This document shows, piece by piece, positions 33,785 to 61,071 of a stretch of 64,000 nt of DNA. How positions within the stretch are numbered: position 1 is the stretch's first letter; the number at the start of each line of letters is the position of its first letter. The notes under the pieces are model-generated. The model was not told the origin of the DNA. It saw nothing but the letters and a program-made list of their open reading frames with translations, and did no database searches. Source of the stretch: Candidatus Omnitrophota bacterium. GTDB taxonomy: Bacteria; Omnitrophota; Gorgyraeia; JAFGHF01. The stretch covers positions 892,064 through 956,063 of the forward strand of contig CP070837.1 of assembly GCA_020341815.1 (NCBI GenBank), written 5' to 3'. Both the position numbers and the translations under genes were made by a program.

Positions 33785-35299
33785 TTAGACTACTTCTATC
33801 TTGAACTCCTCTATATGCAGCCTGGGGTTGTCTCTGACTAAAATCTTGGTCTTAAACTTGGCTTCCAGGTTATGAATGGCCTGCCTATCCTCGTTTACAA
33901 CCTGAGTTACTACATTCGGATGGGCAAAGACAAGGATTGTTTTCTTATTTGCCTTCTGCAGTCTCTTTCTTATCTCCCTCAAAACCAAAATAGCCATGGT
34001 AGCGGGCGACTTCACCAGGCCTCTTCCCTGGCAATATGCGCAAGACTGATAAGCCACGCTCTCCAGGCTTCTCCTGACCCTTTGCCTGGTCATCTCTATC
34101 AATCCCAGTTCAGATACGGTTGAGATATCCGTCTTGGCATGATCGCGCCTCAAAGCCTCATTTAAGGCATCAAATACCCGCTGGCGGTGTCTAGCCCGCT
34201 TCATATCGATAAAATCGATTATAATTATCCCTCCTATATCCCGCAGTCTCATTTGCCTGGCAATCTCCCTGGCCGCCTCTAAATTGACCTGACAGGCGGT
34301 TTCTTCAGGGTCTTTCTTGCGCGTAAACTTGCCGCTGTTTACATCAATGGCCACCAGACCCTCGGTGGGCTCTATCATTATATAGCCTCCGGAGGGTAAA
34401 GATACCTTGCGGTCATAGATTTTAATAATCTCATCCTCCACGCCCCTCCTCTCAAACATAGGCACGTCGGAGCGATAAAGCTGAACCCGGGAGCGCAGAT
34501 TTGGCGAGATAATACTTAAGAATCGCATAATTCTTTTATATTCTTCTTTTGAATCTATCCATAATTTATTGGCCTGAAGAGTAAAATTGTCTCTGATTGT
34601 GCGCAGGATAAGGTCATACTCCTCATGAATCAAGGCCGGTGCGTGCTTTCTGTGCGCAGACACTCTTATTCTGCGCCATAGATTGGTCAAATAACGTAAA
34701 TCCTGCAAAAATTCCCTTTTTGTGCCACCGGCGCCGGCAGTACGCACTATCAAACCCATATTACGGGGAATATTTAAGCTTTTAAGCAGCTCTTTCAGGC
34801 GAGCCCTTTCTTTAACGTCTTTAATCCGGCGGGAAATACCCAGGTGGCTATCGCAGGGCATCAGCACGAGGTAGCGTCCGGGCAAGGCGATGTGTGTAGT
34901 CAGGCGCGCGCCTTTTGTCCCCAGGGGTTCTTTGACAATCTGCACCAGAATCTCCTGGCCAACCTTGAGCTTATCTTTAATTTCGGTATGGGCCTGAACG
35001 TGATTGTTGTCGCTGACTGTGCCTTCATAGGCATAAGGCTTATCTATAATTTCGGCCATCTTTTCATAATCCGGACGCTCTAAGTCCTGGACATATAAAA
35101 ATCCGTTTTTGGGCAAACCTATCTTTACAAAGGCTGCCCCTATAGCCGGCACAAGTGTCTCCACTACTCCTTTATAAATATTTCCTACCAGTCTCTGGGC
35201 GCCCTGCCTTTCTACATAGAACTCTTCCAAACTTCTTCCTTCGGTAATGGCTACCCTTTTCTCCTGAAGCTCTACATTAATCAGTATTTCTTGATACAT
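33785..35299 (-). CDS. rng: Ribonuclease G/E family (RNase G-length, 504 aa)
   Basis: S1 domain plus RNase E/G catalytic domain motifs. Confidence 0.85.
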   Translation of the reverse strand: MYQEILINVELQEKRVAITEGRSLEEFYVERQGAQRLVGNIYKGVVETLVPAIGAAFVKIGLPKNGFLYVQDLERPDYEKMAEIIDKPYAYEGTVSDNNHVQAHTEIKDKLKVGQEILVQIVKEPLGTKGARLTTHIALPGRYLVLMPCDSHLGISRRIKDVKERARLKELLKSLNIPRNMGLIVRTAGAGGTKREFLQDLRYLTNLWRRIRVSAHRKHAPALIHEEYDLILRTIRDNFTLQANKLWIDSKEEYKRIMRFLSIISPNLRSRVQLYRSDVPMFERRGVEDEIIKIYDRKVSLPSGGYIMIEPTEGLVAIDVNSGKFTRKKDPEETACQVNLEAAREIARQMRLRDIGGIIIIDFIDMKRARHRQRVFDALNEALRRDHAKTDISTVSELGLIEMTRQRVRRSLESVAYQSCAYCQGRGLVKSPATMAILVLREIRKRLQKANKKTILVFAHPNVVTQVVNEDRQAIHNLEAKFKTKILVRDNPRLHIEEFKIEVV

Positions 35300-36695
35300 T
35301 CATCTCTGCCTGTTCTTCTAATTCCTGTAATTCCGGAACTCCTGAATCATCCAGGAGTCTTACCGTAACGAAAATAATTAAATCGGTTGTATCTACATCT
35401 TTCTCCGTCTTGCTAAATACATATTTTAATAAAGGCAAATCACCCAAAATAGGGACCTTCTTTACATAGTTCACAGTTTCTTCCTTGATTAATCCGCCGA
35501 TAACTATGGTCTGGCCATCCTTAACCATAACCTGCGTGCTTGACTGGCGGGAAGCAAACCTGGGCGCCTGGATTGTTCCTGTGCCGGTAGTAAAATAATC
35601 CCAGCCGCTGAAAGAGCTCACCTCGGGACTCAGGTCTATAACGATGTAGCCCTCCGGATTGACATGGGGCGTTACCGTTAATTTAACCCCAATGTCCTTT
35701 TCGCTATACCCGGATACCACCAGGCGTCCCGTATCGGAATCCACTTCGTATTTGGGTATATTAAAGGTCTCGGTAACACCGATCACCGCCTCCTGGTTAT
35801 TCAAAGTGGTAATTCGCGGATTGGAAAGGGTCTTTGTATCACTGCGGGATTTCAGAATCTCAAGCGCAAATTGCAATTGTGTAAAATCCAAGGTACCGAA
35901 TGTAAAATCATCTTTTACCGCAAAGGGAAAACCCTGCTGCAGGCTATCCGTAAAATCGGATTGAGTGGTATCTACCCTGGGGAAATATTCTATGCCGGTT
36001 TTGCCGTAAGTTTTTTGGGTGGAAAAAGGCACAACCATCGGTCGTTGTGAGCCCGACCCGGCACTCTCCAGGGTCCAGTCAATCCCCAGGTCTTCGTTCT
36101 CGTCAAGAACCGTTTCGATAATCTTGGCCTCAATCACTACCTGATTAGTCTTTTTATCCAATTTCTCAATCACCTTACTGATTTTGTATAAATTGGTAGG
36201 GATGTCGGTAACCACCACCTGATTTGTGCGGTCGTCGAACTTCACTTTACCCCTATCGGAAATTATCTCGCCAATGGCCTCGGAAACTTCTTCGGCCTTA
36301 GCGTAATTTAAGATGAATACCTGAGTGGAAACCTCTTCTTTGCTTAAGTTTTCCACCGTGGTAACCCTGATAATATCTTCCTCTCTTTCATAAACAAAAC
36401 CGTTATTTTTCAGGATAACATCCAGCGCGCGTTCCCAGGGTACATCCACCAACCTTATGGTTACTGCCCCTGAGACATCCCTGCCGGCAACTATATTAAC
36501 TCCGCTTTTATAAGAAATAATCTTTAAAACACTGTGTATATCGGCCTCCTTGAAATCCACAGTGATATTACCTGCATCCGTCACCTCTTCTTCACCAGCG
36601 ATTTCCTGAGTAAGCGCAACATCATGAAAAGAAAAAATAAAAATTCCCAATAAAAGCATAAGCGGTAATTTCATCCATCCGGTCTTTCTCTGCAT
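35277..36695 (-). CDS. pilQ: Type IV pilus secretin PilQ
   Basis: Secretin C-domain in the context of pilNOP. Confidence 0.8.
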   Translation of the reverse strand: MQRKTGWMKLPLMLLLGIFIFSFHDVALTQEIAGEEEVTDAGNITVDFKEADIHSVLKIISYKSGVNIVAGRDVSGAVTIRLVDVPWERALDVILKNNGFVYEREEDIIRVTTVENLSKEEVSTQVFILNYAKAEEVSEAIGEIISDRGKVKFDDRTNQVVVTDIPTNLYKISKVIEKLDKKTNQVVIEAKIIETVLDENEDLGIDWTLESAGSGSQRPMVVPFSTQKTYGKTGIEYFPRVDTTQSDFTDSLQQGFPFAVKDDFTFGTLDFTQLQFALEILKSRSDTKTLSNPRITTLNNQEAVIGVTETFNIPKYEVDSDTGRLVVSGYSEKDIGVKLTVTPHVNPEGYIVIDLSPEVSSFSGWDYFTTGTGTIQAPRFASRQSSTQVMVKDGQTIVIGGLIKEETVNYVKKVPILGDLPLLKYVFSKTEKDVDTTDLIIFVTVRLLDDSGVPELQELEEQAEMNVSRNTD

Positions 36696-36696
36696 A

Positions 36697-37068
36697 TTAT
36701 TGCTCCTTTTTTTCTTCTTCTATAGATAGTCTCATGATATATTCTTTTCCATTCTTATAGATAACAACCTTATCTTTGCTTATATCCTGCACCATAAATC
36801 CGGAGATTGATTCTCCAACCCTTAATACCTCATCGTTAATCAACGCAGAGCTTTTCCCTTCGGGATCCCATAAAATACCAAATAGCTTAAGCTCATCGAA
36901 AGAATAAAGCGTGCCTATATCCAGTAAATAATGCCCATCTTTATCCACAAGAGGGACAAAAGGGTCCCTTTTTCCTTTATCATCATAGATAAAGGGCTCC
37001 TCCGCCGCCAGAGGTGCCAAGCTGAACATAAAGATTAAAAGTACCGACAATCGGACAAAATTATTCAT
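36697..37068 (-). CDS. pilP: Pilus assembly lipoprotein PilP-like
   Basis: Signal peptide, KRDPFVPL motif, position between pilO and pilQ. Confidence 0.6.
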   Translation of the reverse strand: MNNFVRLSVLLIFMFSLAPLAAEEPFIYDDKGKRDPFVPLVDKDGHYLLDIGTLYSFDELKLFGILWDPEGKSSALINDEVLRVGESISGFMVQDISKDKVVIYKNGKEYIMRLSIEEEKKEQ

Positions 37069-37652
37069 TTAGTCATCACATAGGTTACCACGATAAGTTC
37101 CACATTATGAATGCCTACTTTTTCGGGATCGGCTTCTATTTTAATATTATCTATTCTCATAAATCTATCGGCATTTTCCAGCTTGTTTAAAAAACGGCCC
37201 AATTGATGGTATCCGCATTCGGCCTTTAGCAAAATAGGCGCTTTATAATATATGGAAGGGGTAGCAGCCTTATCTTTCTCTTCTATGACAGGCCTGATTT
37301 CGGTTATTCTCACCTTTAATTCTTTGGCCGCATCGGAAAGATATTCCAATATAGCGGGTATCTCTTTTTCCCCGGGTAGACTTTTTTCGTAAGCAGCCAA
37401 TTTTTCATCCGAACGTGCAATCTGCTCATTAAAGGAATCGATATTTGCCCATTCTTTCTCTATATTAGTAATCTGCGATTTTAATTGTGAGGCCTCCGGC
37501 AAGAGACGAAATGTATTTCTTATTGCGGGAAATACCAATAGAATTAGATAAAAGAGCATAAGTAAAAAAGGAACCAGGGGCATAAAACTGCTGAATTTCT
37601 TAAATTGGGGGACTTTTTGAAAAAGCTCTTTAATTTTTTGCAAATCTTGCAT
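37065..37652 (-). CDS. pilO: Type IV pilus assembly protein PilO
   Basis: TM helix plus coiled-coil plus periplasmic domain. Synteny. Confidence 0.65.
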   Translation of the reverse strand: MQDLQKIKELFQKVPQFKKFSSFMPLVPFLLMLFYLILLVFPAIRNTFRLLPEASQLKSQITNIEKEWANIDSFNEQIARSDEKLAAYEKSLPGEKEIPAILEYLSDAAKELKVRITEIRPVIEEKDKAATPSIYYKAPILLKAECGYHQLGRFLNKLENADRFMRIDNIKIEADPEKVGIHNVELIVVTYVMTK

Positions 37653-37666
37653 AAATAGGCCTTCTG

Positions 37667-38311
37667 TTATTTTTTAAACCGGCCGGTCAGGATAAAATCC
37701 ATCACCTCTATCTGCTCTATTCGTCTCTCTTTAATGGGCCCTAACTCGATACCCGTAAAATCGGAAGAAAACGAAGCATCGCTTTTCAGGTTTTGCATAA
37801 ACCTGCCGATGAGGGCAGGTTCATCCTTGCCCCGCGAGGCACAGCTTCCTTCAATTATCAGATATTTTAAAACTTTGGGTTTGGCGGCCGGGGGTTTTAC
37901 CTTTGTTCTGGCAATTGCCCGGGGTTGCGCCTCTTCTTTTATTTCCAAAGAAAGCTCATTTAACCATACCCCCGGAACTGCCAGTTCGCTGATTTGATTT
38001 AATTTTTTTGACCAGAGTATCCTCTCTCTCATCAATTGCTCAATCAAAGGAATCTTCGCGTTAATCTCCTTCAGCTGGGCCTTTATTTGGTTAAGTTTTT
38101 CTCTTTTTAAAGCAATGCTTTGCCAGCTCTTCTTAAGGCTCTTCAGGCGGATTTTAGTTATGGCATTTAGGGAAATAAAAAGCAGATGAAATAACACCAG
38201 CCCTCCAAAGACCACTAGCGGTATTTTTTTATTAAAACTGAATTCGAAAGAAGGCGCCTTCTTTTTTTTCTTTTTTTGTAATTCTACAGGTAAAAGATTA
38301 ATCTCTATCAT
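37667..38311 (-). CDS. pilN: Type IV pilus assembly protein PilN
   Basis: MIEINLLP start, TM helix, coiled coil. Confidence 0.7.
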   Translation of the reverse strand: MIEINLLPVELQKKKKKKAPSFEFSFNKKIPLVVFGGLVLFHLLFISLNAITKIRLKSLKKSWQSIALKREKLNQIKAQLKEINAKIPLIEQLMRERILWSKKLNQISELAVPGVWLNELSLEIKEEAQPRAIARTKVKPPAAKPKVLKYLIIEGSCASRGKDEPALIGRFMQNLKSDASFSSDFTGIELGPIKERRIEQIEVMDFILTGRFKK

Positions 38312-38319
38312 CTTAAAAT

Positions 38320-38634
38320 TTATTTGCCTTTGCTTTTAAGTAAGGCCAGCAGCTTCTTTCCGAAAGTAATTGCTACAATAATCAGGATTATGGCAATCGT
38401 TACCTCTCTGGCAACACTGGTTGAGGGTCCTTTGGCTGCTTCAGGCAGAGAAAGCGCAGGTATTTCTTCTTTCCCTGTGAGCGGACGGCCTTCTTCGAAT
38501 GTCAGCTTCTCTCTGAGTGCTTCTCTTTCTTTTTCCTCCTGCCTAATTTTTATCTTTTCTCTTTCTTGCTCGGCCCACTTCTTAACTTCCTCCGGACTGG
38601 CATCGTCCCTATAGAGAACGAAAAGATCGTTCAT
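38320..38634 (-). CDS. Small Lys/Glu-rich tail-anchored membrane protein, unknown function
   Basis: C-terminal TM helix (VTIAIILIIVAITFG). Encoded within the pilus operon. Confidence 0.5.
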   Translation of the reverse strand: MNDLFVLYRDDASPEEVKKWAEQEREKIKIRQEEKEREALREKLTFEEGRPLTGKEEIPALSLPEAAKGPSTSVAREVTIAIILIIVAITFGKKLLALLKSKGK

Positions 38635-38635
38635 C

Positions 38636-40351
38636 TCAATCCTCCCTCCAGCTTATTGTTTCAGGCGGAGACAATTCTATCAAGACCGGTAAATATAAAC
38701 GATCGCGTTCGGTCTTTGCCCGAAGATCATGATTCATTATAATCTTACTGGTATAGATAATGGCTTCGTCCCGGCAGACAATATTGCCATTTACGGTGAA
38801 CTTCCCAACCCTTCCGGTAAAAGCGTGATTGTTATAGCTGACCGCATCCAGCGTAGTAATCTTGTTAGATGCCTCGGATATACTATCGATAAGCTCATCC
38901 GACAAAGATGATTCGTAATATTTTCTGGGCTCTTCCCCTCCCGTGCCGTCATCTTTCGCTCCTCCGTCAGCGTTTGTATAGATTCCGTCAAAATAGGGGT
39001 TGCCTTCTGCGTCATAGCCGGTGACATAACCGATATCCGCATCTTCAGCTTCAACGGTATAAGCACTGGTAAAAGGCGGCTGGAGATAATTTCCCACCGT
39101 CGACTGCCAGTCGGAAGTAGTGTAGTTGCCAAGAACCAGATTGCCTCGGCTGGCCAGACCAATAAAGTCTTTTTCGGCATTGGTCTCATCGGTCGTATCG
39201 GGGTTAACATCGGGCTTGGGCCAGGCCGGCGGATCTGCATAGGTAATATTGCCTACCACGTGGGTATTTCTGCCGCTATAGATTGTCCCCTGACCCGTTA
39301 CCACTCCTCTGATTACCACATCTCTTTCTATAACCACAGGCCCGCTAATCTCTATGGGCTCATCCTCTGTGCCGATTAAAACAACGCATCCGTCATCGGG
39401 AGTCCCCTCGATGCCATCAGGCCCTGCCTCACTGGCGTCATCGCCATAGACGGCATTTACTATCGTATCCCCTCCCTGAGAAAGGGTTCCGCCTTCGGCC
39501 ACAGCCAGGTCTCTATAGCTCTGCAGGTCACTCAGATAAGGCATTACTATTAAAGGCTGGCCGGGAAAACGCTCGCTGTCTCCGTCATAGCCATCGGGAT
39601 AACTGTAATCACCCGGCCCATCGGCAGTAGGATTGGTAGGCCGGGCCTGAAGATCGGCGCCAGCCCGATAAGCAGCTATGCTATCATTTTTGGTAACACC
39701 TGAAATATCTCCGTCGACTCCCAGTTCAGGATTTGCCGAAGCGTAAATATCGCCGTTTACCGTAGGGCTGCCATTGAAAGAAAAATCACCGTTAGAGCGG
39801 ATATTACCGTTTGCTATAATTCCCGTTCCCCAGAACCAACCCAGGTTATTAACGAAATAAGGATAGTCAAAGACCTCTGCGGGCCGCGAACCATAGCGAA
39901 GCACGGTTCTGACAGTGCGAGAGACGTTGGTGGCGCCAATAGTTCCTGTTGATTCCAAGACAACATCTGCGCCCCCTGCAGCATCTACGGTTGCAGAAAC
40001 AATGGTTACCGTATATGTCCCATCACCTAAAGAAGCGTCTGTCGGAGGACCGTCGTAATGTGGCTCAGGGGGGTTATCACCGCGAGGCTCGTTAAGTAGG
40101 TTAAACCAGTTAAAATCATCGGGTTGGGGATTAGGAAAGTTACCTGCAAACGTAACATATATTCCTCTGGCTGCATCATCTATTCCTGCCTCGGCCAGGT
40201 AAAGGGCCTTAATGGTATCTCTTTCTCTTTCGGCAATCCTCTTCTCCCCCACGCTTCGGATCAAAAAGGCGCTCCCTAAAATCGAAAGGACCACAACTAC
40301 AAGGTAGCAGGCGATAAGCATTATACCTTTTTTATCTTTTAAGGGCATCAT
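38636..40351 (-). CDS. Large PilX_N-family pilus-associated protein (571 aa; possible tip/adhesin component)
   Basis: N-terminal hydrophobic helix plus ERDTIKALYLAEAGID (PilX N-terminal domain pattern). Gly/Asp-rich beta region. Confidence 0.6.
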   Translation of the reverse strand: MMPLKDKKGIMLIACYLVVVVLSILGSAFLIRSVGEKRIAERERDTIKALYLAEAGIDDAARGIYVTFAGNFPNPQPDDFNWFNLLNEPRGDNPPEPHYDGPPTDASLGDGTYTVTIVSATVDAAGGADVVLESTGTIGATNVSRTVRTVLRYGSRPAEVFDYPYFVNNLGWFWGTGIIANGNIRSNGDFSFNGSPTVNGDIYASANPELGVDGDISGVTKNDSIAAYRAGADLQARPTNPTADGPGDYSYPDGYDGDSERFPGQPLIVMPYLSDLQSYRDLAVAEGGTLSQGGDTIVNAVYGDDASEAGPDGIEGTPDDGCVVLIGTEDEPIEISGPVVIERDVVIRGVVTGQGTIYSGRNTHVVGNITYADPPAWPKPDVNPDTTDETNAEKDFIGLASRGNLVLGNYTTSDWQSTVGNYLQPPFTSAYTVEAEDADIGYVTGYDAEGNPYFDGIYTNADGGAKDDGTGGEEPRKYYESSLSDELIDSISEASNKITTLDAVSYNNHAFTGRVGKFTVNGNIVCRDEAIIYTSKIIMNHDLRAKTERDRLYLPVLIELSPPETISWRED

Positions 40352-40360
40352 CCTCTCCTC

Positions 40361-40879
40361 CTAATTCCTCAAAGTAACCTGGAAATTCAGACTTGATTGT
40401 ATGGTCCGGCCCTGAAGAATATCCTTTTGGGCAGTAATATCTATTCTTATTTCCGAGGCAGAGACAGCGGTAAAGGAAAGCGCGCTGACATTATTAGTCA
40501 AAGCCCGTTCAAGATTTACCTGTTCGACATCGGCTCCATCAAAAACTTCCCTCAAGACCTCTCCATTACTCAACGAGTATTTAATATACCAGCCTGCGTT
40601 ACCTTCGGCCCCCCAGTCAGGATTGTCATTGATAGCAACCTGCAAGGTAAGGCTACCGTCTGGAGCAATGTTCACTTGGCTAGAGCCGGATCGGCGCAAC
40701 TCCCTGCTCATCCAATCCATCGCCCTTCTTACCTCCTGCTGCAGTTCAACTTCGGCCGTGTTCGTAAACCAGGACTGTCTGCCTGCGGTTAAAACTCCAT
40801 ATATTGCCCCCAAGACAACCGCGAAAGTGAATATGACAACCATCACTTCTACTAAGGTTAACCCCGCCCTTCTTTTCAT
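40361..40879 (-). CDS. Minor (pseudo)pilin with a prepilin-type N-terminal cleavage/methylation motif
   Basis: MKRRAG|LTLVEVMVV. Start relocated to the ATG inside the repeat element, with a good RBS. Confidence 0.7.
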   Translation of the reverse strand: MKRRAGLTLVEVMVVIFTFAVVLGAIYGVLTAGRQSWFTNTAEVELQQEVRRAMDWMSRELRRSGSSQVNIAPDGSLTLQVAINDNPDWGAEGNAGWYIKYSLSNGEVLREVFDGADVEQVNLERALTNNVSALSFTAVSASEIRIDITAQKDILQGRTIQSSLNFQVTLRN

Positions 40880-40930
40880 TACCTTCACCCTTAACTCTTG
40901 TGTAAGGCCTGGTTTTAAGAAGGGCGGGGT
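40861..40930. repeat. CCCCGCCCTTC...GAAGGGCGGGG hairpin element, copy A (embeds the RBS and start of minor pilin 1)
   Basis: One of four copies. Spacer subfamily shared with copy B. Confidence 0.7.
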
Positions 40931-40953
40931 AAATCCTTTTGAAAAATAGCTTC

Positions 40954-41493
40954 TCACCGCTCTGTCACCAATGTGGTTATCTGGGCCGGAGAGCTCAAAA
41001 CTCCATCATTGTTATCGTCCTCGCCGGCATCTAATATGCCGTCTAAATCGGTATCTTCGCCGATTTGACGGCCGCCTTTCTGAAACCAGGTAACTACAAT
41101 CCTCACCTGATAAATATCGGCATCGGGGGGCGCACCGAAGGGCGAAATGAACATTGCCCCGGCGCCATTAAGCGGAGAATCCAAAACTCCATTACCGTTA
41201 TCATCCTCACCGGCATCCAATACACCGTCTAAATCATCGTCTTCTCCGGCGGGATCAAAGAGATTAGGGGAGCCATTGACGAAAAAGTCATTAGCAATCA
41301 TATCAAAATCATCATAATTGCGAATTACCTCCAGCTGCTCCTGGGCTCCATACATGGCAATGGTGAGATTTCTTGAGGTCTCATTCAAGTTAGCGCAACC
41401 GATAAATACCCCTAAAAGACCCAGGAGCACCGCGACCAAGAGCGCCACCGCAACCATAAGTTCAACCAGGGTAAACCCCGCCCTTCTTTTCAC
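40954..41493 (-). CDS. Minor pilin with an Asp-rich DxDxDG calcium-binding-like repeat region
   Basis: (V/M)KRRAG|FTLVELMVAV. Four D-x-D-(L)-D-G-(I/V)-L-D-A-G-E-D-D-N-x-(D/N)-G-V-L repeats. Putative GTG start inside the repeat element. Confidence 0.65.
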   Translation of the reverse strand: MKRRAGFTLVELMVAVALLVAVLLGLLGVFIGCANLNETSRNLTIAMYGAQEQLEVIRNYDDFDMIANDFFVNGSPNLFDPAGEDDDLDGVLDAGEDDNGNGVLDSPLNGAGAMFISPFGAPPDADIYQVRIVVTWFQKGGRQIGEDTDLDGILDAGEDDNNDGVLSSPAQITTLVTER

Positions 41494-41544
41494 TGCCTTC
41501 GCCCTTATCTCTCGCACAAGGCCTGATTTTAGGAAGGGCGGGGT
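41475..41544. repeat. CCCCGCCCTTC...GAAGGGCGGGG hairpin element, copy B (embeds the RBS and start of minor pilin 2)
   Basis: See copy A. Confidence 0.7.
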
Positions 41545-41558
41545 AAATGCGCCTTTTT

Positions 41559-42569
41559 TCACTTATTGCTTACCCCTCTTAAAGCCAGACCGCAACCTAC
41601 CGCCAGCGTCGGAGAAACCTCATTCAACTTGGCGCTGTCGATGCCTGTAGAGTTGCCAAGCAATTTCTCCAGAGGATTCCATGTCTTAATCTCTCTGCCT
41701 AACTCGGCTTTAAAGAACTCAAGCAACCCAGGGATTTGAGCCCCTTCGCCGCTAATATAAACTACGCCTACCTGTCTTTCGAATTCACTTTCATAATAAT
41801 CAATAGAAACCCTTATCTCGCGAATTAGATTTGTCAAAAGCGGCTTTATCGTCTCAAAAAGCCCTTTTTCTTTGTTTTCCTCCTGCTGCTGCTGTTGTTG
41901 TAACAGTAGGAAATCTTCCAAGACAGAGAGGTCGCGGCTAAAAAATGGCATCTCTCCCTGAAGGATGCCTATATTCACCAAATCGAATTCCAGATTAATC
42001 AGGGCCGCCACATCCTCTTCTTTTAGCTGTGGGCCATTTACCTGAAAACAGTTTATTAAAGAAAAGATATTTACGTCGATAATATTGGGCTCAAGCCCGG
42101 CCTCGTGAATAAGCTCGACGAACTCCATTATTGCCTGCTTTTTAGCGGCCACCAGGAAAACTTTCATCCTATTGGAAGAACTCGCCACCCGAGGCGTAAG
42201 GATATGGTAATCCAGAACCACCTCTTCCATCTTAAAAGGGATATATTGTTGTGCTTCGTATGCCAGGGCCTGCCCGAGTTCCTCTCGACTCATCTTGGGT
42301 AAATTGATATACCTGACGATAACCGATTCACCCGAAACACCGATATTTACGGGATGAGCGGAAATCCCTTTTTCCTGGGCAATCTTTTTCAATGCCTCAA
42401 GCTTTTCTTCTCTGTTCTGTGGGGATTTAAGCGCAACACTGGCAAAATCAACAAGCTTAGGCCCGCCGGCAGAAGCGGTTAATTTCACCATATTGATTCG
42501 CCGCTTGCCTATATCTAACCCTATAGAAATAGCGGCCTTTCTCTTGAATATCAGATCTATCGCTTTCAA
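41559..42569 (-). CDS. pilM: Type IV pilus assembly protein PilM (actin-like ATPase fold)
   Basis: ISIGLDIGKRRINMVKL start motif and an FtsA/actin-like fold. Confidence 0.85.
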   Translation of the reverse strand: MKAIDLIFKRKAAISIGLDIGKRRINMVKLTASAGGPKLVDFASVALKSPQNREEKLEALKKIAQEKGISAHPVNIGVSGESVIVRYINLPKMSREELGQALAYEAQQYIPFKMEEVVLDYHILTPRVASSSNRMKVFLVAAKKQAIMEFVELIHEAGLEPNIIDVNIFSLINCFQVNGPQLKEEDVAALINLEFDLVNIGILQGEMPFFSRDLSVLEDFLLLQQQQQQEENKEKGLFETIKPLLTNLIREIRVSIDYYESEFERQVGVVYISGEGAQIPGLLEFFKAELGREIKTWNPLEKLLGNSTGIDSAKLNEVSPTLAVGCGLALRGVSNK

Positions 42570-42594
42570 ATTTACTTATCCTTACTTATTTTAG

Positions 42595-42623
42595 AATATA
42601 GCATAAAATAATTACTCTGTCAA
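42595..42623 (-). promoter_or_regulatory. Sigma70-like promoter (TTGACA, 17 nt spacer, TATATT) upstream of pilM
   Basis: Consensus -35 and near-consensus -10 with optimal spacing. Confidence 0.5.
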
Positions 42624-42674: not shown

Positions 42675-43157
42675 TCAATATGGTGCGGGCGGGCTGCTTG
42701 CGTCAGGTTCCTCTGCGTTGGTAGCGGTATAAGTGAGCTGGCCCGTTTCCATTATAAAGAAATTCTTGGCCCCCGTGCGGCCAAAAGAGCTTGGCCAGGC
42801 AACTATGGTAAAAGACTCATTGTCTGCTCCCAGCGTGTAAACATAATAATACCCCTGCATCGCCGTATTGGCTGTGATGGCATTGGCTAAGGGAATGGAA
42901 ATAAAAGGCGGGTCGGAGATGGGCAAGGTCAAATCGGTTAAGGCATTCGGATAGGTATGCGGAATGTTGGCACCATAATATCCCAGGCAGGCCTTATAAA
43001 GCGTGCGCATATTGCCGACTGCGGCCACTTCATTGGCATTTACTCTTGAACGAGCCATCTGAGGAATGGTGATAGTAGCTAAAAGCGCAATCAAGGCAGC
43101 TATTATCATTATCTCGACTAAAGTAAAGCCCCTATGTCTAGTTATAAATATTTTCAT
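42675..43157 (-). CDS. Type IV major-pilin-like protein, paralog of PilA
   Basis: MKIFITRHRG|FTLVEIMIIAALIALLA, and ...IPQMARSRVNANE parallels PilA. Confidence 0.8.
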   Translation of the reverse strand: MKIFITRHRGFTLVEIMIIAALIALLATITIPQMARSRVNANEVAAVGNMRTLYKACLGYYGANIPHTYPNALTDLTLPISDPPFISIPLANAITANTAMQGYYYVYTLGADNESFTIVAWPSSFGRTGAKNFFIMETGQLTYTATNAEEPDASSPPAPY

Positions 43158-43360: not shown

Positions 43361-43921
43361 TTATTCGGCTACCACCCAACCTGCGGCTATCAGCGCTGCA
43401 GCGCCATAGGCACCTGCAGGCACATCAAGTGTATCCAGACCATAGACTACGCCTTGTTCGTCAATATAAAAACAGCGTACGCCTGAGGTCTGGTATGCAA
43501 GCGGAGTAGCATCTATCCAGAACCGCTCAATTATAGCGTCACCGTCTGAGTCCTGAGGGTTGTAGGTAAAATCATAACCCGACCTTCTCGGTGGGTTATT
43601 AGGACCTGCAATCTCACTCCACTGCAACTCAAGATACGGCGGCTCAGGGGGAGCAATCGAATTTGAAGTCAAGGCATCAAACCCGGCTCCGGCTGCTCCT
43701 GCTGCACCCGGATAGGTAGGTACGCCCTGAGTGATATTAGCTCCGGCAAATGAATTGAGACCAGCACAAAGGGTCTTCAAAGTATTTACCGTAGCGTTCT
43801 CATTGGCGTTAAGCCTGGCTCTGAGCAAGTTCGGGATAGCAATCGCGGCTAATAAAGCTATGATAGCAACGACAATCATGATTTCTACTAACGTAAAGCC
43901 TTTGCGATTTAGCTTAGACAT
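43361..43921 (-). CDS. pilA: Type IV major pilin PilA
   Basis: MSKLNRKG|FTLVEIMIVVAIIALLAAIAIPNLLRAR. Own terminator. Confidence 0.85.
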   Translation of the reverse strand: MSKLNRKGFTLVEIMIVVAIIALLAAIAIPNLLRARLNANENATVNTLKTLCAGLNSFAGANITQGVPTYPGAAGAAGAGFDALTSNSIAPPEPPYLELQWSEIAGPNNPPRRSGYDFTYNPQDSDGDAIIERFWIDATPLAYQTSGVRCFYIDEQGVVYGLDTLDVPAGAYGAAALIAAGWVVAE

Positions 43922-44143: not shown

Positions 44144-45337
44144 TTATAACAACCTGCTAATCGTAAGGATAGGCAGAAACATCGCCGCCACAATACCCCC
44201 TACCACTACGCCTAAAAACACAATAACTATCGGCTCGATCAGGGAGGTTAAGCTGCTAACGGCAGTATCTACCTGCTCTTCGTAAAACTCGGAAATCTTG
44301 GTCAACATCTTCTCCAATTCCCCTGTCTGCTCACCCACCCCGATCATCCGGGTAACCATCGGCGGAAAGACCCCGCTTCTGGCTAAGGGCTCGGCGATAT
44401 TTTCTCCCTCACGGATATTTGTACGCACCGCATTCACCGCCGTCTCAATCACCTTATTTCCTGATGTCCTGGCGGTAATCTCCAAAGCATTGAGAATGGG
44501 CACCCCGCTCCTGACCAGCGTGGATAAGGTGCGGGAAAACCGGGCAATAGCTACTTTTCGCAAAAGGATACCGACGACGGGTAGCCGCAACATTGTCTTA
44601 TCCAGCTGTATCCGCGCCTTTTCAGTGCGAATAATTCTTGAAAGAAGGAAGCCGAAGAAAAACAGACCTCCGAAAAGAACAGGCGCACTGCGTCGGGCGA
44701 AATTACTAACGGCGATCAGTGCCTGCGTAATCTTAGGCAACTCTCCCCCTAAGGTGTCAAATATTCCTTTAAACGTGGGCACTACTTTAAAAATCAAGAT
44801 ACCGGTAATAAGCGCTGCCATTGAAACAACCAGAGCCGGATAAATAAAGCTTGACTTTACCTTATGCACAAGCGCGCTGCTTTTCTCTAAATAGCTGGCT
44901 AATCTCTCCAGGATATCGTCGAGCGTTCCACTGGACTCACCAGCCCTGACCATATGCACAAAAAGTTCGGAAAAGATTTGCGGATGGTGCGACAAGGCCT
45001 CGGACAGGCTGCTGCCTGTCTCTATATTATCTCTCAAACTGGCAATCACTGCCCGAAAATCGGGCTTTTGAATTTGCTCAACCAAAACATCCAGAGCCTG
45101 AACCAAGGGGATACCGCTATCCACCATTGTAGCCAACTGCCGGGAAAAAATCACCAAATCATCTATCTTTACCTTTGCCTTGGAGGCCAGCTTCAAGGTT
45201 TTTGTCTCTGTCACCGAAATAACAATCAGGCCCTTTTTGCGCAGCAAATCAATCAGGGTAGCCTGATCTTTACATTGCAGGGTGGCGATAATGGTTCTTG
45301 CTCGCTGGTCTTTGGCTACATATTTGAAATTCGGCAT
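44144..45337 (-). CDS. pilC: Type IV pilus inner-membrane platform protein PilC (GspF family)
   Basis: Full-length GspF/PilC. Confidence 0.9.
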   Translation of the reverse strand: MPNFKYVAKDQRARTIIATLQCKDQATLIDLLRKKGLIVISVTETKTLKLASKAKVKIDDLVIFSRQLATMVDSGIPLVQALDVLVEQIQKPDFRAVIASLRDNIETGSSLSEALSHHPQIFSELFVHMVRAGESSGTLDDILERLASYLEKSSALVHKVKSSFIYPALVVSMAALITGILIFKVVPTFKGIFDTLGGELPKITQALIAVSNFARRSAPVLFGGLFFFGFLLSRIIRTEKARIQLDKTMLRLPVVGILLRKVAIARFSRTLSTLVRSGVPILNALEITARTSGNKVIETAVNAVRTNIREGENIAEPLARSGVFPPMVTRMIGVGEQTGELEKMLTKISEFYEEQVDTAVSSLTSLIEPIVIVFLGVVVGGIVAAMFLPILTISRLL

Positions 45338-45357: not shown

Positions 45358-47055
45358 TTACTCATCGGCAGTCATTCGCAATACCTCTTCCAGGGTTGTC
45401 TCACCCCGAATGAATTTCTCTAATCCGTTCTCACGCAGAACCTTCATCCCCTGTCTACGGGCATAATCTTTAATCTGGTTACTGGGGGCACCTTTGATGA
45501 TCATTTCACGAAGCTTATCGTCCATAACCAGGACTTCCAATGTACCCATACGGCCGTAATAACCCGTCTGATTACACCTGGCGCATCCCTTTCCGTGATA
45601 GAATTTACTATCCTTTGCCACTTTCACTCCCAGCTTATCCAGCGTTGCCCGGGGTACATCGACAGGCTCTTTGCAATTCGGACATATGCGCCGGCAGAGC
45701 CGCTGTGCGGCTATCAGAATTACCGATGAGGCAATCAAAAAAGGCTCCACCCCCATATCGATTAAGCGGGTAACTGCCGAGGCGGCATCATTTGTATGTA
45801 ATGTACTTAAGACCAGCTCCCCCGTTAAGGCGGCTTTCACGGCAATATCCGCAGTTTCTCCATCGCGAATCTCCCCCACCATAATCACGTCCGGGCTCTG
45901 TCTCAAAAGTGCGCGCAGACCATTGGCAAAGGTAAGGCCGATTTCCGGCTTGGTCTGGATTTGGGTAACCCTCTCCACCTGGTATTCCACGGGGTCCTCT
46001 ATGGTAATGATATTCTTATCTGTAGTATTCAATTGGCTGAGGACCGAATAAAGGGTGGTTGATTTCCCGCAACCCGTAGGCCCAGTCAAAAGAATCATTC
46101 CGTATGGCTTGGCAATAGCATCCTTAAAAGCCTCAAGAGAAGCGGGCAGAAATCCCAAATTATCAAGCCCCAGAGATAAATTTGACTTATCCAGCGCCCT
46201 TAAAACACATTTGCCGCCAAAGCTTGTGGGTAAAAATGAGACACGAAAATCGATTTCTTTCTGGCCCATGCTAACCTTAAAGCGGCCGTCCTGAGGAAGG
46301 CGCTTCTGGGTAATATCCAGATTGGACATAATTTTCAGCCTGGTAATAAGGGCATTTTGCAGCTTTTTGGGTAGAGCATAAAACTCATGTAAAATGCCAT
46401 CGATGCGGTAACGAATACGCAGCCTGTCCTCAAAGGGTTCAAGATGAATATCGCTGGCCCGGCTCTTCAAGGCCTCATTGATAATTACATCTACCAATTT
46501 TATAATCGGGGCCTCTTTACCATCTTTGGTCATCTCAGCCAAATCGGCAATATTCAATCCCGCTACGGTTTTTTTTCGCTCTTTCTTTACTATGTCGGCC
46601 ATCTCCTCCATGCCCGGCGCATAATACCTCTCGATAGCCTGGAGAATATCATCGGCGGTGGTAACCATAGTCTGCACTTCCGATTTGGTCAATGCCTTAA
46701 CATCATCCAGGGCAAAGATATTTAAGGGGTCACTCATTGCCACGCTGACTACATTTTTAATCTTAGAAACAGGTATCACCAGATAATGGCGCGCTACGCG
46801 TTCGGGAATAAGCTTAACCACCGCAGGATCTATTTTGTACCTGGAGAGATTTATCGGAGGGATGCCCAATTGCGCGCCCAGACAAACCATCAAGTCCTTC
46901 TGGGATACCATCTTTTGCTCAATCAAGATTTTGCTTAGACTGCCTCCTTCTTCCTTCTGAATCTTTAAGGCCTTCTTGAGATCTTTCTCGCTAAGCAGGT
47001 TATTCTTCAGAAGCACTTCATTAATTTTCTTCTTTAGAGCAATTAGCTTGGGCAT
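45358..47055 (-). CDS. pilB: Type IV pilus assembly ATPase PilB (GspE family, N-terminal MshEN domain)
   Basis: Walker A GPTGCGKSTT, Asp/His boxes, tetracysteine. N-terminal LxxxxLxxxxLxxALxxQ repeats. Confidence 0.9.
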   Translation of the reverse strand: MPKLIALKKKINEVLLKNNLLSEKDLKKALKIQKEEGGSLSKILIEQKMVSQKDLMVCLGAQLGIPPINLSRYKIDPAVVKLIPERVARHYLVIPVSKIKNVVSVAMSDPLNIFALDDVKALTKSEVQTMVTTADDILQAIERYYAPGMEEMADIVKKERKKTVAGLNIADLAEMTKDGKEAPIIKLVDVIINEALKSRASDIHLEPFEDRLRIRYRIDGILHEFYALPKKLQNALITRLKIMSNLDITQKRLPQDGRFKVSMGQKEIDFRVSFLPTSFGGKCVLRALDKSNLSLGLDNLGFLPASLEAFKDAIAKPYGMILLTGPTGCGKSTTLYSVLSQLNTTDKNIITIEDPVEYQVERVTQIQTKPEIGLTFANGLRALLRQSPDVIMVGEIRDGETADIAVKAALTGELVLSTLHTNDAASAVTRLIDMGVEPFLIASSVILIAAQRLCRRICPNCKEPVDVPRATLDKLGVKVAKDSKFYHGKGCARCNQTGYYGRMGTLEVLVMDDKLREMIIKGAPSNQIKDYARRQGMKVLRENGLEKFIRGETTLEEVLRMTADE

Positions 47056-47072: not shown

Positions 47073-48794
47073 TTAAGATAATTTCTCATCCGGCACAGTA
47101 ACCCTGAGCACCTCTTCTAAAGAGGTCTCACCCCTGATTACTTTGGCCAGGCCGTTTTCCCGCAATGTGGTCATTCCTTCCCGGCGAGCGGCGTTCTTTA
47201 TCTGTACCTCAGGCGCCTTTTGAGCAATCAAGTCCTTTATCTTAGGCGTTATTCTTAAGATTTCCATAATCGCTATGCGGCCTTTGTAGCCTGTGTTATT
47301 ACACTTAGGGCAACCCTTGGGGCGATAGAACGTCAATTCTTTATTATCCTTTAAATTCAACTTTTCTTTTAAGGCCGGCGAGACTTTATAGGCCTCTTTG
47401 CAGTCGGGACAGAGAAGCCTTACCAGCCTTTGCGCCCCAACCATAAGGACTGAGGCGGTAATCAAAAAAGGCTCTACCCCCATATTGGCCAGGCGCACCA
47501 AAGAACCGGCGGCATCGGTGGTGTGCAAGGTACTTAACACCAGGTGCCCCGTGAGCGCTGATTTGATGGCGATATCTACTGTATCGTAATCACGAATCTC
47601 TCCTATCATAATTACATCGGGATCCTGACGTAAGATTGAACGTAAAGCATTGGCAAAAGTCAACCCAATTTCCGGAAGAGCAGTTACCTGATTTATACCG
47701 TCCAGCTGATATTCGATGGGGTCTTCTACGGTTACCAAATTCTTTTCTATGGAATCCACGCGCTTAAGGATAGAATATAACGTGGTGGTTTTGCCGCATC
47801 CGGTCGGACCGCAAATCAATATCATTCCATGCGGACGAAGGGTACATTCTTTTAATACCTTAAGCGGCGTCTCTTCGAAGCCGAGTTTTTCCAGATCAAG
47901 GAGCAACGTGCTTTTATCCAGAATACGTAAGGCAAGCTTCTCTCCAAAGCTGGAGGGAAGCACCGAAACGCGAAAATCCACTTCTTGTTTTCTGGCTGAG
48001 CCGTATTTAAATCTTCCGTCTTGAGGCAACCTGTGTTCGGCCACATTAAGCCTGGACATTACCTTTATTCTGGTAACAATGGCCTCATGCATACTCTTTG
48101 GCGGAGCCTGGCCCATCTGGAGAACCCCATCCACGCGGTAACGCACCTGCATAATCTTCTCTAAGGGTTCAATGAGAATATCGCTCGCCCGGCGTTTAAT
48201 TCCTTCCTCTAAAATCATATTGGTTATCTTTACCAGAGGAGCCCCTTTAACCAGCTCCATAAGGCTTTCTGTATCCAATTCCTCTTCTTTCTTCTTGGAA
48301 GGCTCTGTTACTACTGCGGTCCTGCGCTCAATTGCATCTTTGATGATTTCCTGGGCATCTGCGGAATAATATCGGCGAATAGCCTCTTTGATATCTACCT
48401 CGGTACTAAGGACGGTTTTGACTTTATATTTGGTAAGGGCGCGAATATCGTCCAGGGCCACGATATTTAAAGGGTCACTTACAGCAACAGTTAGGTTATC
48501 CCCAATCCTGGAGACCGGAATCAACTGATAATGCTGGGCTACCTGCTGAGGGATAAGCTTTATTACTTCCGGCTTAATCTTTAATTTTTCCAGGTTTACG
48601 GGCGGAATGTGCAAACTTTTACTTAGCGCTATCATCAAATCCCTCTCATCCACCAGGTTTAGGGACACCAAAATACTGCTTAGCCTTCCCCCTTTTTGCT
48701 TTTGAATATCCAATGCCTTATCCAACTCATCAGGAGTAAGGAGCTTATTTTCCGTAAGAATATTAACCAACTGTTCTTTAAGTGACTTAGCCAT
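47073..48794 (-). CDS. Second PilB/GspE-family ATPase paralog (N-terminal MshEN domain)
   Basis: Same motif set (GPTGCGKTTT, CPKC). About 50% identity by eye to the adjacent PilB. Confidence 0.85.
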   Translation of the reverse strand: MAKSLKEQLVNILTENKLLTPDELDKALDIQKQKGGRLSSILVSLNLVDERDLMIALSKSLHIPPVNLEKLKIKPEVIKLIPQQVAQHYQLIPVSRIGDNLTVAVSDPLNIVALDDIRALTKYKVKTVLSTEVDIKEAIRRYYSADAQEIIKDAIERRTAVVTEPSKKKEEELDTESLMELVKGAPLVKITNMILEEGIKRRASDILIEPLEKIMQVRYRVDGVLQMGQAPPKSMHEAIVTRIKVMSRLNVAEHRLPQDGRFKYGSARKQEVDFRVSVLPSSFGEKLALRILDKSTLLLDLEKLGFEETPLKVLKECTLRPHGMILICGPTGCGKTTTLYSILKRVDSIEKNLVTVEDPIEYQLDGINQVTALPEIGLTFANALRSILRQDPDVIMIGEIRDYDTVDIAIKSALTGHLVLSTLHTTDAAGSLVRLANMGVEPFLITASVLMVGAQRLVRLLCPDCKEAYKVSPALKEKLNLKDNKELTFYRPKGCPKCNNTGYKGRIAIMEILRITPKIKDLIAQKAPEVQIKNAARREGMTTLRENGLAKVIRGETSLEEVLRVTVPDEKLS

Positions 48795-48798
48795 TTTA

Positions 48799-49263
48799 TT
48801 ATTTATCGGCCTTTCCCTGGGTATAAATACGTTCGATCGCTTCTTTTATTTCGGTAGAGGTACCCAGAAAGACCTCTATCTTGCATTTAGTCAATGCCTC
48901 GATTTCCTTAATTGCCTCTTCATCCAGAGGATTGGCCATAACCACGGTTAAGATATCGCTCATTTTATCCACAGCTAAAACGTGATATTTACTGGCTAAA
49001 CTCTCCGGAATTAATTTTGCTACTTCAAAATCGATTTCATAATTGGCCAAAGGCAAATAAGGTAAATCGTGCTGAAGAGCCAGAATTTGAACTATATCCT
49101 CCTCCGTAACAAAACCCAGTTTTACCAAGGCCTCTCCCATGAGAATCCCTTCTTTTTTCTGAAGCTGCAAGGCCTGCTCTAACTGTTCGGGGGTAATCTT
49201 ACCCCTTTGAATCAAGAGTTGGCCTATCTGTTCTTTTGGCGTATTTTTCTTAAATGGAGTCAT
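48799..49263 (-). CDS. Standalone MshEN / T2SSE_N-domain protein (putative c-di-GMP binding)
   Basis: LEQALQLQKKEG...GEALVKLGFVTEEDI motif organisation like the PilB/MshE N-domain, with no ATPase domain. Confidence 0.65.
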   Translation of the reverse strand: MTPFKKNTPKEQIGQLLIQRGKITPEQLEQALQLQKKEGILMGEALVKLGFVTEEDIVQILALQHDLPYLPLANYEIDFEVAKLIPESLASKYHVLAVDKMSDILTVVMANPLDEEAIKEIEALTKCKIEVFLGTSTEIKEAIERIYTQGKADK

Positions 49264-49267: not shown

Positions 49268-50332
49268 TTATGCCTTTTTAAATAGCCTCTGTAAGTCCTG
49301 AACTTCTGTGGTATAGCCTAAGGCTTCCTCTTCTGTAATAATACCTCTCTGGCAAAGCTCATAAAGCGCCTGATTCATTGTGCGCATACCTTCTTTCTGC
49401 CCTGTCTGTATTGCCGAATAGACCTGATGCGCCTTTCCTTCCCGAATTAAACTGCGCACAGCATGATTGGCAGACAATACTTCCGTAGCCAGGACTCTTC
49501 CGCCTTTCTTACTGGGAATCAACTGCTGCGATAAAACACCCAGGAGAACAAAAGATAACTGCGCGCGCACCTGCTGCTGCTGGTGAGCCGGAAAGACATC
49601 CACCACCCTGTTGATTGTCTGCACGCTGTCGGAGGTATGCAGGGTAGCAAAGACCAGATGCCCTGTCTCGGCAATATTTAAAGCGGCCTGAATAGTCTCC
49701 AAGTCTCTCATTTCCCCGATAAGAATTACATTGGGGTCCTCCCTCAATATGTGCCTGAGGGCCTGGGAAAAAGAACGGGTGTCAGCCCCCACCTCCCGCT
49801 GTTCTATAACAGCCTTGATATTTTTAAAAGTGTATTCGATGGGGTCCTCAACGGTAATAATATGACAATGCCTTTCCTGATTAATCATATTTATCATCGC
49901 CGCTAAGCTTGTAGACTTTCCGCTCCCCGTTGCCCCGGTAACTAAAACCAGACCCTTGGACCTGCGGCAGAAGTCCTTAACTGCCTTCAGCGGCAAACCG
50001 CATTCATCAGGCGTCATAATCTGATAAGGAATCCTTCTTATGGCGCAGCCCACAGCCCCTCTCTGCTGATAAACATTCAGACGAAAGCGGCTTAACCCTT
50101 CGATTCCGAAGGACATATCCAATTCTAAATTTTCCTCAAATTCTTTTATCGCCTCTTTGCTCAACAGGCCGTAAGTCAATTCTTTCGCCCTTTGAGCCGT
50201 AAGGACCTTTTCTTCGGCATTAACCAGCTTGCCGTCTATGCGTAATTGGGGCGGCGCCCCGGCAGTAATATGCAAATCGGACGCCTTTTTTTCGACCATT
50301 ACCTTTAATAGCTTCTCCATAGCTTCAATCAT
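49268..50332 (-). CDS. pilT: Twitching-motility retraction ATPase PilT
   Basis: GATGSGKSTSLAAMI Walker A, PilT-length (354 aa). Confidence 0.9.
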   Translation of the reverse strand: MIEAMEKLLKVMVEKKASDLHITAGAPPQLRIDGKLVNAEEKVLTAQRAKELTYGLLSKEAIKEFEENLELDMSFGIEGLSRFRLNVYQQRGAVGCAIRRIPYQIMTPDECGLPLKAVKDFCRRSKGLVLVTGATGSGKSTSLAAMINMINQERHCHIITVEDPIEYTFKNIKAVIEQREVGADTRSFSQALRHILREDPNVILIGEMRDLETIQAALNIAETGHLVFATLHTSDSVQTINRVVDVFPAHQQQQVRAQLSFVLLGVLSQQLIPSKKGGRVLATEVLSANHAVRSLIREGKAHQVYSAIQTGQKEGMRTMNQALYELCQRGIITEEEALGYTTEVQDLQRLFKKA

Positions 50333-52043: not shown

Positions 52044-52060
52044 CTGGTGCTCCTTCTGGC

Positions 52061-52200: not shown

Positions 52201-52228
52201 ACGTATTTTGTTACTTTGTACAACCAGA

Positions 52229-61065: not shown

Positions 61066-61071
61066 AAATTT

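Follow-up and report, generated by a model that had tools for sequence, protein, structure and literature searches.

The DNA analysed here is a 64,000-nucleotide stretch of the genome of a Candidatus Omnitrophota bacterium (contig CP070837.1, positions 892,064 to 956,063), called the window in its entirety, and it carries the genes of a type IVa pilus (T4aP) in which pilM is separated from pilN, pilO, pilP and pilQ by four genes. The locus probably represents the assembly half of a single-locus T4aP with a core tip cassette, in a hybrid operon that arose by the reductive merging of two tandem sets of alignment genes. All nine open reading frames (ORFs) from pilM to pilQ are present on the minus strand, in the order pilM (positions 41559–42569), the genes for minor pilin A (mpA, 40954–41562) and minor pilin B (mpB, 40361–40957), a gene for a protein of 571 amino acids (aa) (38636–40351), a gene for a 104-aa protein (38320–38634), pilN (37667–38311), pilO (37065–37652), pilP (36697–37068) and pilQ (35277–36695). 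The downstream neighbour of pilQ is rng (33785–35299, minus strand). The same order is seen in L005/L007, L008 and L087 (labels L001 to L092 denote the genome loci compared with the window), confirming the four-gene separation that the original prediction had described.

Two paralogous sets of alignment genes

A search with PilM of the window has revealed two discrete classes of PilM proteins, one with 48–69% identity (M1-type) and the other, comprising all remaining proteins, with 40% or less. M1-type PilM proteins are about 320 aa long and match only PF11104, whereas nearly all of the others are about 340 aa long and have an extra match to an FtsA domain (PF14450). The M1-type pilM gene always lies 3' of pilB-pilC-pilA-pilA; the pilin pair that precedes it in the window is also found in L004, L005, L087, L089 and L091. 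PilM of the window (336 aa) is 62–68% identical to the M1-type proteins of L004, L005, L008 and L087. L004 carries two sets of alignment genes, and PilM of the window is closer to set 1 (62%) than to set 2 (36%), whereas PilN (37% and 53%), PilO (29% and 58%) and PilP (39% and 53%) are closer to set 2.

Neighbour-joining (NJ) trees of 16–26 sequences, with 60 bootstrap replicates for the PilM and PilN clades, agree with these identities. PilM of the window falls inside the M1 clade and PilN inside the N2 clade in 60 of 60 replicates each. PilO groups with the set-2 PilO proteins of the two-set loci in a tree without bootstrap, and PilP was assigned by pairwise identity. N1 (60/60) and O1 form separate clades, each of which joins the single set of L018, and M1 groups with the L018-type PilM (52/60). 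The window therefore contains no contiguous cognate pilM-N-O-P-Q: four genes intervene, and PilM is of another paralogue lineage than PilN. Since PilM is of lineage 1 and PilN and PilO are of lineage 2, the data do not support the original idea of genes inserted into a pilMNOPQ operon that had been intact. A simple relocation of the cognate pilM gene is likewise rejected by the paralogue trees.

Related genomes carry both sets in tandem between the flanks seen in the window, pilB-pilC-pilA-pilA on one side and rng-rplU-rpmA-obg on the other. In L090, the order is M1 N1 O1 P1 Q1, M2 N2 O2 P2 Q2 and rng. L004 and L092 have the same two sets with a cassette between N2 and O2 (M1 N1 O1 P1 Q1, M2 N2, cassette, O2 P2 Q2, rng), and L089 shows M1 to Q1 followed by M2 up to the end of the contig. 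Two further loci are single-set hybrids: L088 has M1 N2, a different cassette and O2 P2 Q2, and L091 has M1, a cassette and then N2 onwards. L090 has pilN1-O1-P1-Q1-pilM2 as one uninterrupted block, and an L004-type locus from which this block was deleted would have exactly the order of L088. Loss of this contiguous block from a tandem two-set locus would thus generate a hybrid operon; the order in the window would additionally require a cassette between pilM and pilN. Because the INLLP motif is kept in both N1 and N2, it is plausible that PilM of one set could dock on PilN of the other.

Gene order across related genomes

An alignment of the 571-aa protein family led to 288 genome loci in Omnitrophota, Planctomycetota, Kiritimatiellota, Lentisphaerota and Verrucomicrobiota, and the family comprises 878 representatives at 50% identity (E ≤ 1e-3). 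Hidden Markov models (HMMs) built from the window proteins were mapped onto 92 loci. A metagenome scan with PilM gave a single 3-kb locus; gene contexts were taken from the protein search and contig look-ups. The cassette consisting of mpA, mpB and the 571-aa gene, with or without the small protein gene, is a conserved module across the Planctomycetes–Verrucomicrobia–Chlamydiae (PVC) phyla and often stands alone or is tandemly duplicated. Where it is linked to alignment genes in the 92 mapped loci, it mostly lies immediately 5' of a contiguous pilM-N-O-P-Q-rng array, as in L001, L015, L016, L019, L026, L033 and many loci of Verrucomicrobiota and Lentisphaerota. Since the cassette usually adjoins pilMNOPQ in Omnitrophota and PVC loci, the linkage of tip and alignment genes is normal in this lineage, contrary to the initial view that it is unusual.

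Apart from the window, the split order pilM, cassette, pilN occurs only in its nearest relatives (L005/L007, L008 and L087), whose flanks are identical and whose 571-aa protein or PilM shares 58–68% identity with that of the window. A smaller cassette occupies the place between pilM and pilN in L091. The proposed comparison with related genomes thus gives a split order that is kept in the nearest relatives and contiguous genes in the distant ones. The position of the cassette varies within the lineage, being before pilM, between pilM and pilN, or between pilN and pilO, and both position and content differ between sisters in the Rng tree (L087 and L088).

The third gene of the cassette is replaced in close relatives. 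L088 encodes a 716-aa LamG/DUF2341 protein (11654–14851) at this place, and L091 (10969–13036) and L092 (15133–17156) encode shorter proteins of 334–348 aa. The tip subunit is thus the exchangeable part of the cassette. Tandem cassettes are present in L006, L009, L016, L017, L022 and L023, and two adjacent paralogues of the 571-aa gene in L003/L011/L014, L001 and L018. Many Omnitrophota loci have such tandem duplicates of the cassette or of the large pilin gene alone, often at a distance from any pilMNOPQ.

The adjacency of pilQ and rng is found in L001, L004, L015, L016, L019, L033, L087, L088, L090, L091 and L092. It holds in every Omnitrophota locus for which DNA downstream of pilQ was available, and rplU-rpmA-obg-proB comes next where the locus extends far enough. 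This conserved adjacency indicates that the pilus operon is anchored to a housekeeping block.

The putative tip cassette

The products of mpA and mpB are both minor pilins, as originally proposed. MpA occupies the GspI/PilV position and carries a class III signal peptide (KRRAG|FTLVE, with Gly−1 and Glu+5), scoring 28.9 bits against N_methyl, which is above the gathering score. Its N-terminus gives weak matches to GspI, XpsI, PilV and ComGE. Two tandem repeats in MpA together hold four EF-hand-like Dx[DN]x[DN]GxxD loops, in agreement with the calcium-binding-like repeats noted before. An internal direct repeat of 76 nt with 79% identity (40987–41062 and 41173–41248) doubles a pair of loops. 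One or two such loops are present in 13 of 60 MpA homologues, and the remainder have none. MpB occupies the GspJ/PilW position, carries the class III signal KRRAG|LTLVE with Gly−1 and Glu+5 (N_methyl, 29.8 bits, also above the gathering score), and weakly matches GspJ and the Verru_Chthon cassette C protein. Both genes have two possible starts. For mpA, these are a long-leader GTG at 41562, which overlaps the pilM stop codon (GTGA), and an alternative short-leader GTG at 41493. For mpB, they are a long-leader GTG at 40957 overlapping the mpA stop codon and a short-leader ATG at 40879, which corresponds to the 172-aa NCBI protein (P0201). Profile searches of the PDB with MpA and MpB gave no meaningful match. 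An AlphaFold 2 model of MpB, built from one homologue only, has a predicted local distance difference test (pLDDT) score of 41.7, and a GspJ-like fold is not established.

The 571-aa protein was initially assigned to the PilX_N family. Its score against PilX_N (PF14341) is 19.3 bits (E 0.0012), below the gathering score of 25.5 bits, although the match is precomputed for some of its homologues (P0002, P0007 and P0010). Since this score is under the threshold, the class was assigned by structure, and the protein belongs to the PilX class without being a member of the Pfam family. The AlphaFold model (pLDDT 87.3) has ComZ as its best structural match, followed by GspK and XcpX, and consists of a beta-solenoid built into a type IV pilin framework. 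The N-terminus (KKG|IMLIA) is of the Gly-cleavage type without Glu+5, so that the protein combines a GspK-like pilin fold with the missing Glu+5 of K-type subunits. Pfam and NCBIfam profiles revealed no sequence-family link with ComZ, and the identity in the structural alignment is only 11–14%. In ComZ, too, a beta-solenoid is part of the pilin, and a location at the pilus tip has been argued for this protein (PMC6561018). MpA, MpB and the 571-aa protein together are probably an I-J-K-type core set of minor pilins in the usual order, with a ComZ-like large minor pilin of the GspK/PilX class as the K subunit. The 571-aa protein is identical to an NCBI protein encoded on the 1.55-Mb contig, which bears the product name 'type II secretion system protein'.

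The 104-aa protein is rich in Lys and Glu, has a C-terminal transmembrane (TM) helix, and belongs to a cassette-linked family that was found by HMM directly 3' of a 571-aa homologue in about 20 Omnitrophota loci. In all its other members, a signal peptide (GYC|LFRDD) at the N-terminus is combined with a charged linker, a C-terminal TM helix and a basic tail. The window copy is short of about 21 codons covering the signal peptide in comparison with L001, L003, L004, L005, L008 and others. Judged by this comparison, it is a truncated member from which the signal peptide has been deleted, that is, a derived copy, and it may be impaired or decaying, or may have altered topology or function. The C-terminal helix seen at first therefore stands, but 'tail-anchored' describes the derived copy and not the class, because the signal peptide is lost in the window only. 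Neither the 104-aa protein nor its full-length homologues have a match in Pfam or NCBIfam.

The alignment complex proteins

PilM is an actin-like cytoplasmic assembly protein that scores 181 bits against TIGR01175 (cutoff 133) and matches PF11104 with an E value of 1.5e-41. PilN (214 aa) has one TM helix and no Pfam match on its own. Its family profile matches Myxococcus xanthus PilN in PDB entry 3jc8 (E 1.8e-6) and entry 4bhq (E 0.011), and 8 of 10 family members weakly match PF05137. The N-terminus of PilN, MIEINLLP, holds the INLLP motif, to which PilM is predicted to bind. PilO matches PF04350 (71 bits, E 1.4e-19). The PilP-like periplasmic protein (123 aa) gives weak matches to the GspC HR region (E 0.004) and has a signal peptide with no lipobox Cys; its gene is between pilO and pilQ in all loci mapped. 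PilQ contains Secretin (E 2.6e-45), Secretin_N and STN domains and scores 273 bits against the PilQ model TIGR02515, slightly under the cutoff of 284.

From this gene content, PilB and PilC together with PilM1, PilN2, PilO2, PilP and PilQ would form the assembly machine, in which the conserved N-terminal INLLP of PilN2 would be the docking site of PilM1. On this platform, the I-J-K-like pilins would be the first to assemble and would prime the filament, presenting the solenoid protein, as adhesin or receptor, at the tip of the pilus.

The genes from pilM to rng are tightly packed. The stop and start codons of pilM/mpA and of mpA/mpB overlap by 4 nt (GTGA), the other gaps are 1–14 nt, and pilQ overlaps rng by 23 nt (35277–35299). 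The spacing is compatible with a single transcription unit, and co-transcription from pilM to rng is plausible. The overlapping stop and start codons would couple translation of the minor pilins to that of pilM.

Hairpin repeats at cistron junctions

A hairpin repeat of about 75 nt is present in four copies in the window, all on the minus strand (40852–40938, 41466–41552, 55566–55654 and 61063–61149). It has a 14-bp GC-rich stem (ACCCCGCCCTTCYT / AAGAAGGGCGGGGT) and a loop of 42–44 nt. All four copies are at cistron junctions, namely mpA/mpB, pilM/mpA, mreC/mreD and that between a DksA-like gene and lspA. The copy at pilM/mpA (41466–41552) has the 14-bp stem ACCCCGCCCTTCCT / AAGAAGGGCGGGGT and a minimum free energy (MFE) of −43.9 kcal/mol (z −3.0), and that at mpA/mpB (40852–40938) has an MFE of −42.9 kcal/mol (z −4.0). 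In the mpA and mpB hairpins, the leader residues KRRAG are encoded by the 3' arm, whose end coincides with the Gly−1 codon. In the mreD and lspA hairpins, the upstream gene ends with its stop codon directly against the 5' arm, and a Shine-Dalgarno-like sequence (GGAAGG/GAAGGG) within the 3' arm lies beside the start codon. Such an arrangement is that to be expected if melting of the hairpin were to couple translation of the adjoining genes.

L001 has hairpins in the same register at the 5' ends of minor pilin genes (6255–6323 and 6757–6824), one of them in a different reading frame, and one of its minor pilin genes has only the upstream start, giving a leader of 27 aa. In L005, a perfect stem of 18–20 bp with a different sequence is found in the same register (about 6199–6312). 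A hairpin whose 3' arm ends at the Gly−1 codon of a minor pilin is thus present in three genomes with different stem sequences. There is no such hairpin at the minor pilin 5' ends of L087, L008 and L004, and Rfam has no family for the repeat. A sub-threshold snoR110 match on the opposite strand was dismissed as a chance match to a hairpin. The repeat may be a regulatory or translational-coupling RNA, a small mobile repeat, or both.

Origin of the split operon

If reductive merging of two tandem sets produced the operon, the direction of change was one of losses rather than gains. The proxy trees of Rng and PilC would fit either two losses or a gain followed by a loss; losses are favoured because M1, N1 and O1 share the outgroup L018, and because the deletion of an N-O-P-Q-M block is likelier than the insertion of a permuted block precisely after pilM1. 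Several points weigh against this reading. The trees are NJ trees that include fragments of metagenome-assembled genomes, their deep nodes are not resolved, and M2 does not clearly join the PilM proteins of the 'type-2-only' loci. The exact path is not reconstructable: a two-set ancestor with a cassette between M2 and N2 is not observed, and the alternative path requires an extra move of pilN or of the cassette. Two word-filtered searches gave no second pilM or 571-aa gene from the 1.55-Mb contig, of which the analysis covered 64 kb. The folds of MpA and MpB are not established, and co-transcription, the contact between PilM1 and PilN2 and the location at the tip are what the genes by themselves suggest.

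The hybrid L091 is basal in the proxy trees of Rng and PilC, and the hybrid state could accordingly be ancestral. The order M1, cassette, N2 O2 P2 Q2 would then be the older one, and the two-set loci, which lie between L091 and the crown hybrids in these trees, would later have gained pilN1-O1-P1-Q1-pilM2, for example from an L018-like type-1 lineage. This is doubtful. A circularly permuted N-O-P-Q-M block would have had to enter precisely behind pilM1, and deleting a contiguous block is simpler. Moreover, M1 (52/60), N1 and O1 all group with L018, so that M1 has the same origin as N1 and O1 and not as N2 and O2. The insertion of a four-gene tip or priming module into a contiguous cognate pilMNOPQ, giving a new co-transcribed arrangement, would agree with the gene order of the window itself, with distant relatives in which pilMNOPQ is contiguous and the cassette is outside, and with the dispersed hairpin repeats at the pilM/mpA and mpA/mpB junctions, which could mark recombination. 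It is nevertheless unlikely: PilM and PilN come from different paralogue lineages, the order is old enough to be common to relatives with 58–68% protein identity, and there is no repeat at the boundary between the 104-aa gene and pilN. The mobile-element signatures named beforehand as a sign of recent insertion were looked for, and no transposase, other mobile-element gene or tRNA was found in the 64-kb window. The GC content at third codon positions (GC3) is 0.44–0.51 in the cassette genes and 0.485 on average in the window (standard deviation 0.048), and the raised total GC of the 571-aa gene is due to codon positions 1 and 2. A recent horizontal insertion of the cassette was therefore rejected on the basis of the ordinary GC3 and the lack of tRNA.

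There is also a slim chance that the variable place of the cassette and the recurrent M1 + N2O2P2Q2 hybrids are no neutral scars but reflect active module exchange, in which PilM of one pilus machine is selected to drive PilNOPQ of another and the hairpin serves either as a novel type of translational-coupling element between cistrons or as a recombination site by which pilin cassettes are moved. A type II secretion system (T2SS) in place of a pilus, with an order that mirrors the gsp organisation, is very improbable. The NCBI label of the 571-aa protein, the weak matches of PilO to GspM and of PilP to GspC, and the type-2-only order E-F-G-G-I-J-K-(M+N)-O-P-Q, which is colinear with gspE-F-G-H-I-J-K-L-M, point in that direction. 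However, the cluster encodes a PilT-like retraction ATPase, PilM is above the TIGR01175 cutoff, the secretin scores 273 bits against PilQ but 214 bits against GspD, and PilM and PilN are separate proteins instead of a single GspL. In addition, V. archaeovorus, a species of Omnitrophota, is reported to express T4aP (PMC10066038). Finally, the source is a metagenome-assembled genome, so that the order could in principle stem from misassembly, faulty binning or a chimeric contig. The contig spans 1.55 Mb, however, the junctions are tight and in frame, and three or more independent assemblies, made from other samples, have the same order and flanks, so that the likelihood of an artefact is negligible. 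Reductive merging of two tandem sets is therefore the favoured origin of the hybrid operon.

Surroundings of the operon

The pilus supercluster is headed by a c-di-GMP-I riboswitch (52120–52202; Rfam RF01051, 59.7 bits) and, like the operon, is on the minus strand. The riboswitch is followed by a small ORF of 114 aa (51750–52094), genes identified by Pfam for a HAMP-GAF-GGDEF protein (50345–51766), a PilT-like ATPase (49268–50332), a stand-alone protein consisting only of MshEN (48799–49263), two MshEN-bearing PilB paralogues (47073–48794 and 45358–47055) and PilC (44144–45337), and two pilin genes with N_methyl matches (186 aa, 43361–43921; 160 aa, 42675–43157) directly upstream of pilM. The riboswitch, the GGDEF protein and the MshEN domains suggest that the supercluster is under the control of cyclic di-GMP (c-di-GMP). 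The 105-nt gap upstream of pilM contains a promoter-like sequence, TTGACA-17-TATATT with TG (42595–42623, minus strand; 11/12 in a consensus scan). The scan detected 27 sites in the window as against 24.2 expected from shuffled sequences, so that this site is a candidate only. A terminator scan gave 26 signals compared with 18.3 in shuffled sequences, which is no informative excess either, and the internal signals were not interpreted.

Downstream, rng encodes RNase G (TIGR00757, 505 bits) and is followed by rplU, rpmA, obg, proB and proA. The earlier remark that there is no strand break into rng-rplU-rpmA-obg is true but carries little weight as evidence, as almost all genes of the window share this strand, the minus strand. 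The GC3 values of pilO (0.36) and pilP (0.40) are markedly below the window mean, unlike those of the cassette genes. A second c-di-GMP-I riboswitch (15912–16088, minus strand, 69.8 bits) is located 5' of a gene for a CobA/BtuR-type corrinoid adenosyltransferase (15231–15740); a gene for a 368-aa protein without a Pfam match (14128–15234) is also 3' of it, and this pairing is unusual for c-di-GMP-I. A 1783-aa protein (3535–8886, minus strand) with a right-handed beta-helix, PKD and bacterial Ig domains, whose gene is followed by an LptC-like gene, is probably a surface adhesin or an enzyme.

Comparison with known systems

The components encoded in the window are those of the canonical pilMNOPQ systems of Pseudomonas aeruginosa and M. 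xanthus and of pilMNOWQ of Thermus: the same five components if the PilP-like protein is counted as PilP, a PilN with INLLP, a PilO with PF04350 and a secretin with STN, Secretin_N and Secretin domains. As in canonical T4aP, the PilT and PilB ATPases and PilC are encoded near the alignment genes. Unlike in canonical pilMNOPQ, pilM is not next to pilN, PilM and PilN are from different sets, and PilP has no lipobox. The genes of the window system are all in one locus, whereas T4aP systems described elsewhere usually have theirs dispersed among about four operons (10.1101/576694).

The T2SS gsp clusters likewise combine genes for I-J-K (pseudo)pilins with platform genes, and their K subunit lacks Glu+5, as in the window. 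The order pilB-pilC-pilA-pilA-mpA-mpB-X571-(s104)-pilM-pilN-pilO of related Omnitrophota, where X571 and s104 are the genes for the 571-aa and 104-aa proteins, is colinear with gspE-F-G-H-I-J-K-L-M. In contrast to the T2SS, the window has separate PilM and PilN in place of GspL, pilM is 5' of the I-J-K genes, and a PilT-like ATPase is present. The 571-aa protein is of the same class as GspK, XcpX and PilX, with a PilX_N score below the Pfam threshold, but it is twice the size of GspK and has a beta-solenoid in place of the alpha-helical insertion domain. It shares a solenoid with ComZ of Thermus thermophilus (PDB 6qvi), although the TM-scores are 0.29–0.33 at 11–14% identity and the domain geometry differs. 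Unlike ComZ, it has a PilX_N-like N-terminus without Glu+5, and the likeness is one of predicted structure.

The Amuc_1098–1102 cluster of Akkermansia is, like the window locus, a pilus system of the PVC group. The family of Amuc_1101 (NCBIfam NF045709) has PilM-like and PilN-like regions in one polypeptide, whereas these are separate genes 3.2 kb apart in the window. PilM of the window aligns with positions 7–179 and PilN with positions 355–490 of the 608-position Amuc_1101 model, scoring 134 and 28 bits against a cutoff of 650.

The window locus is thus a lineage-specific variant of a known system, and current models of pilus assembly are not overturned. It is notable for the probable hybrid origin of the operon and for a widespread family of ComZ-like, putative tip pilins, not for a new mechanism; this solenoid pilin family is largely unannotated in PVC bacteria. 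Pilus gene order in the lineage appears to change through loss and cassette shuffling, not through insertion. PilM is apparently exchangeable between paralogous alignment complexes, which fits a contact limited to the N-terminal peptide of PilN, and the locus is an evolutionary case useful for questions of PilM–PilN compatibility. T4aP is nearly universal in Omnitrophota and has been proposed to attach the ultra-small cells to their hosts (PMC10066038). Knowledge of the tip and assembly modules helps to interpret this attachment lifestyle.

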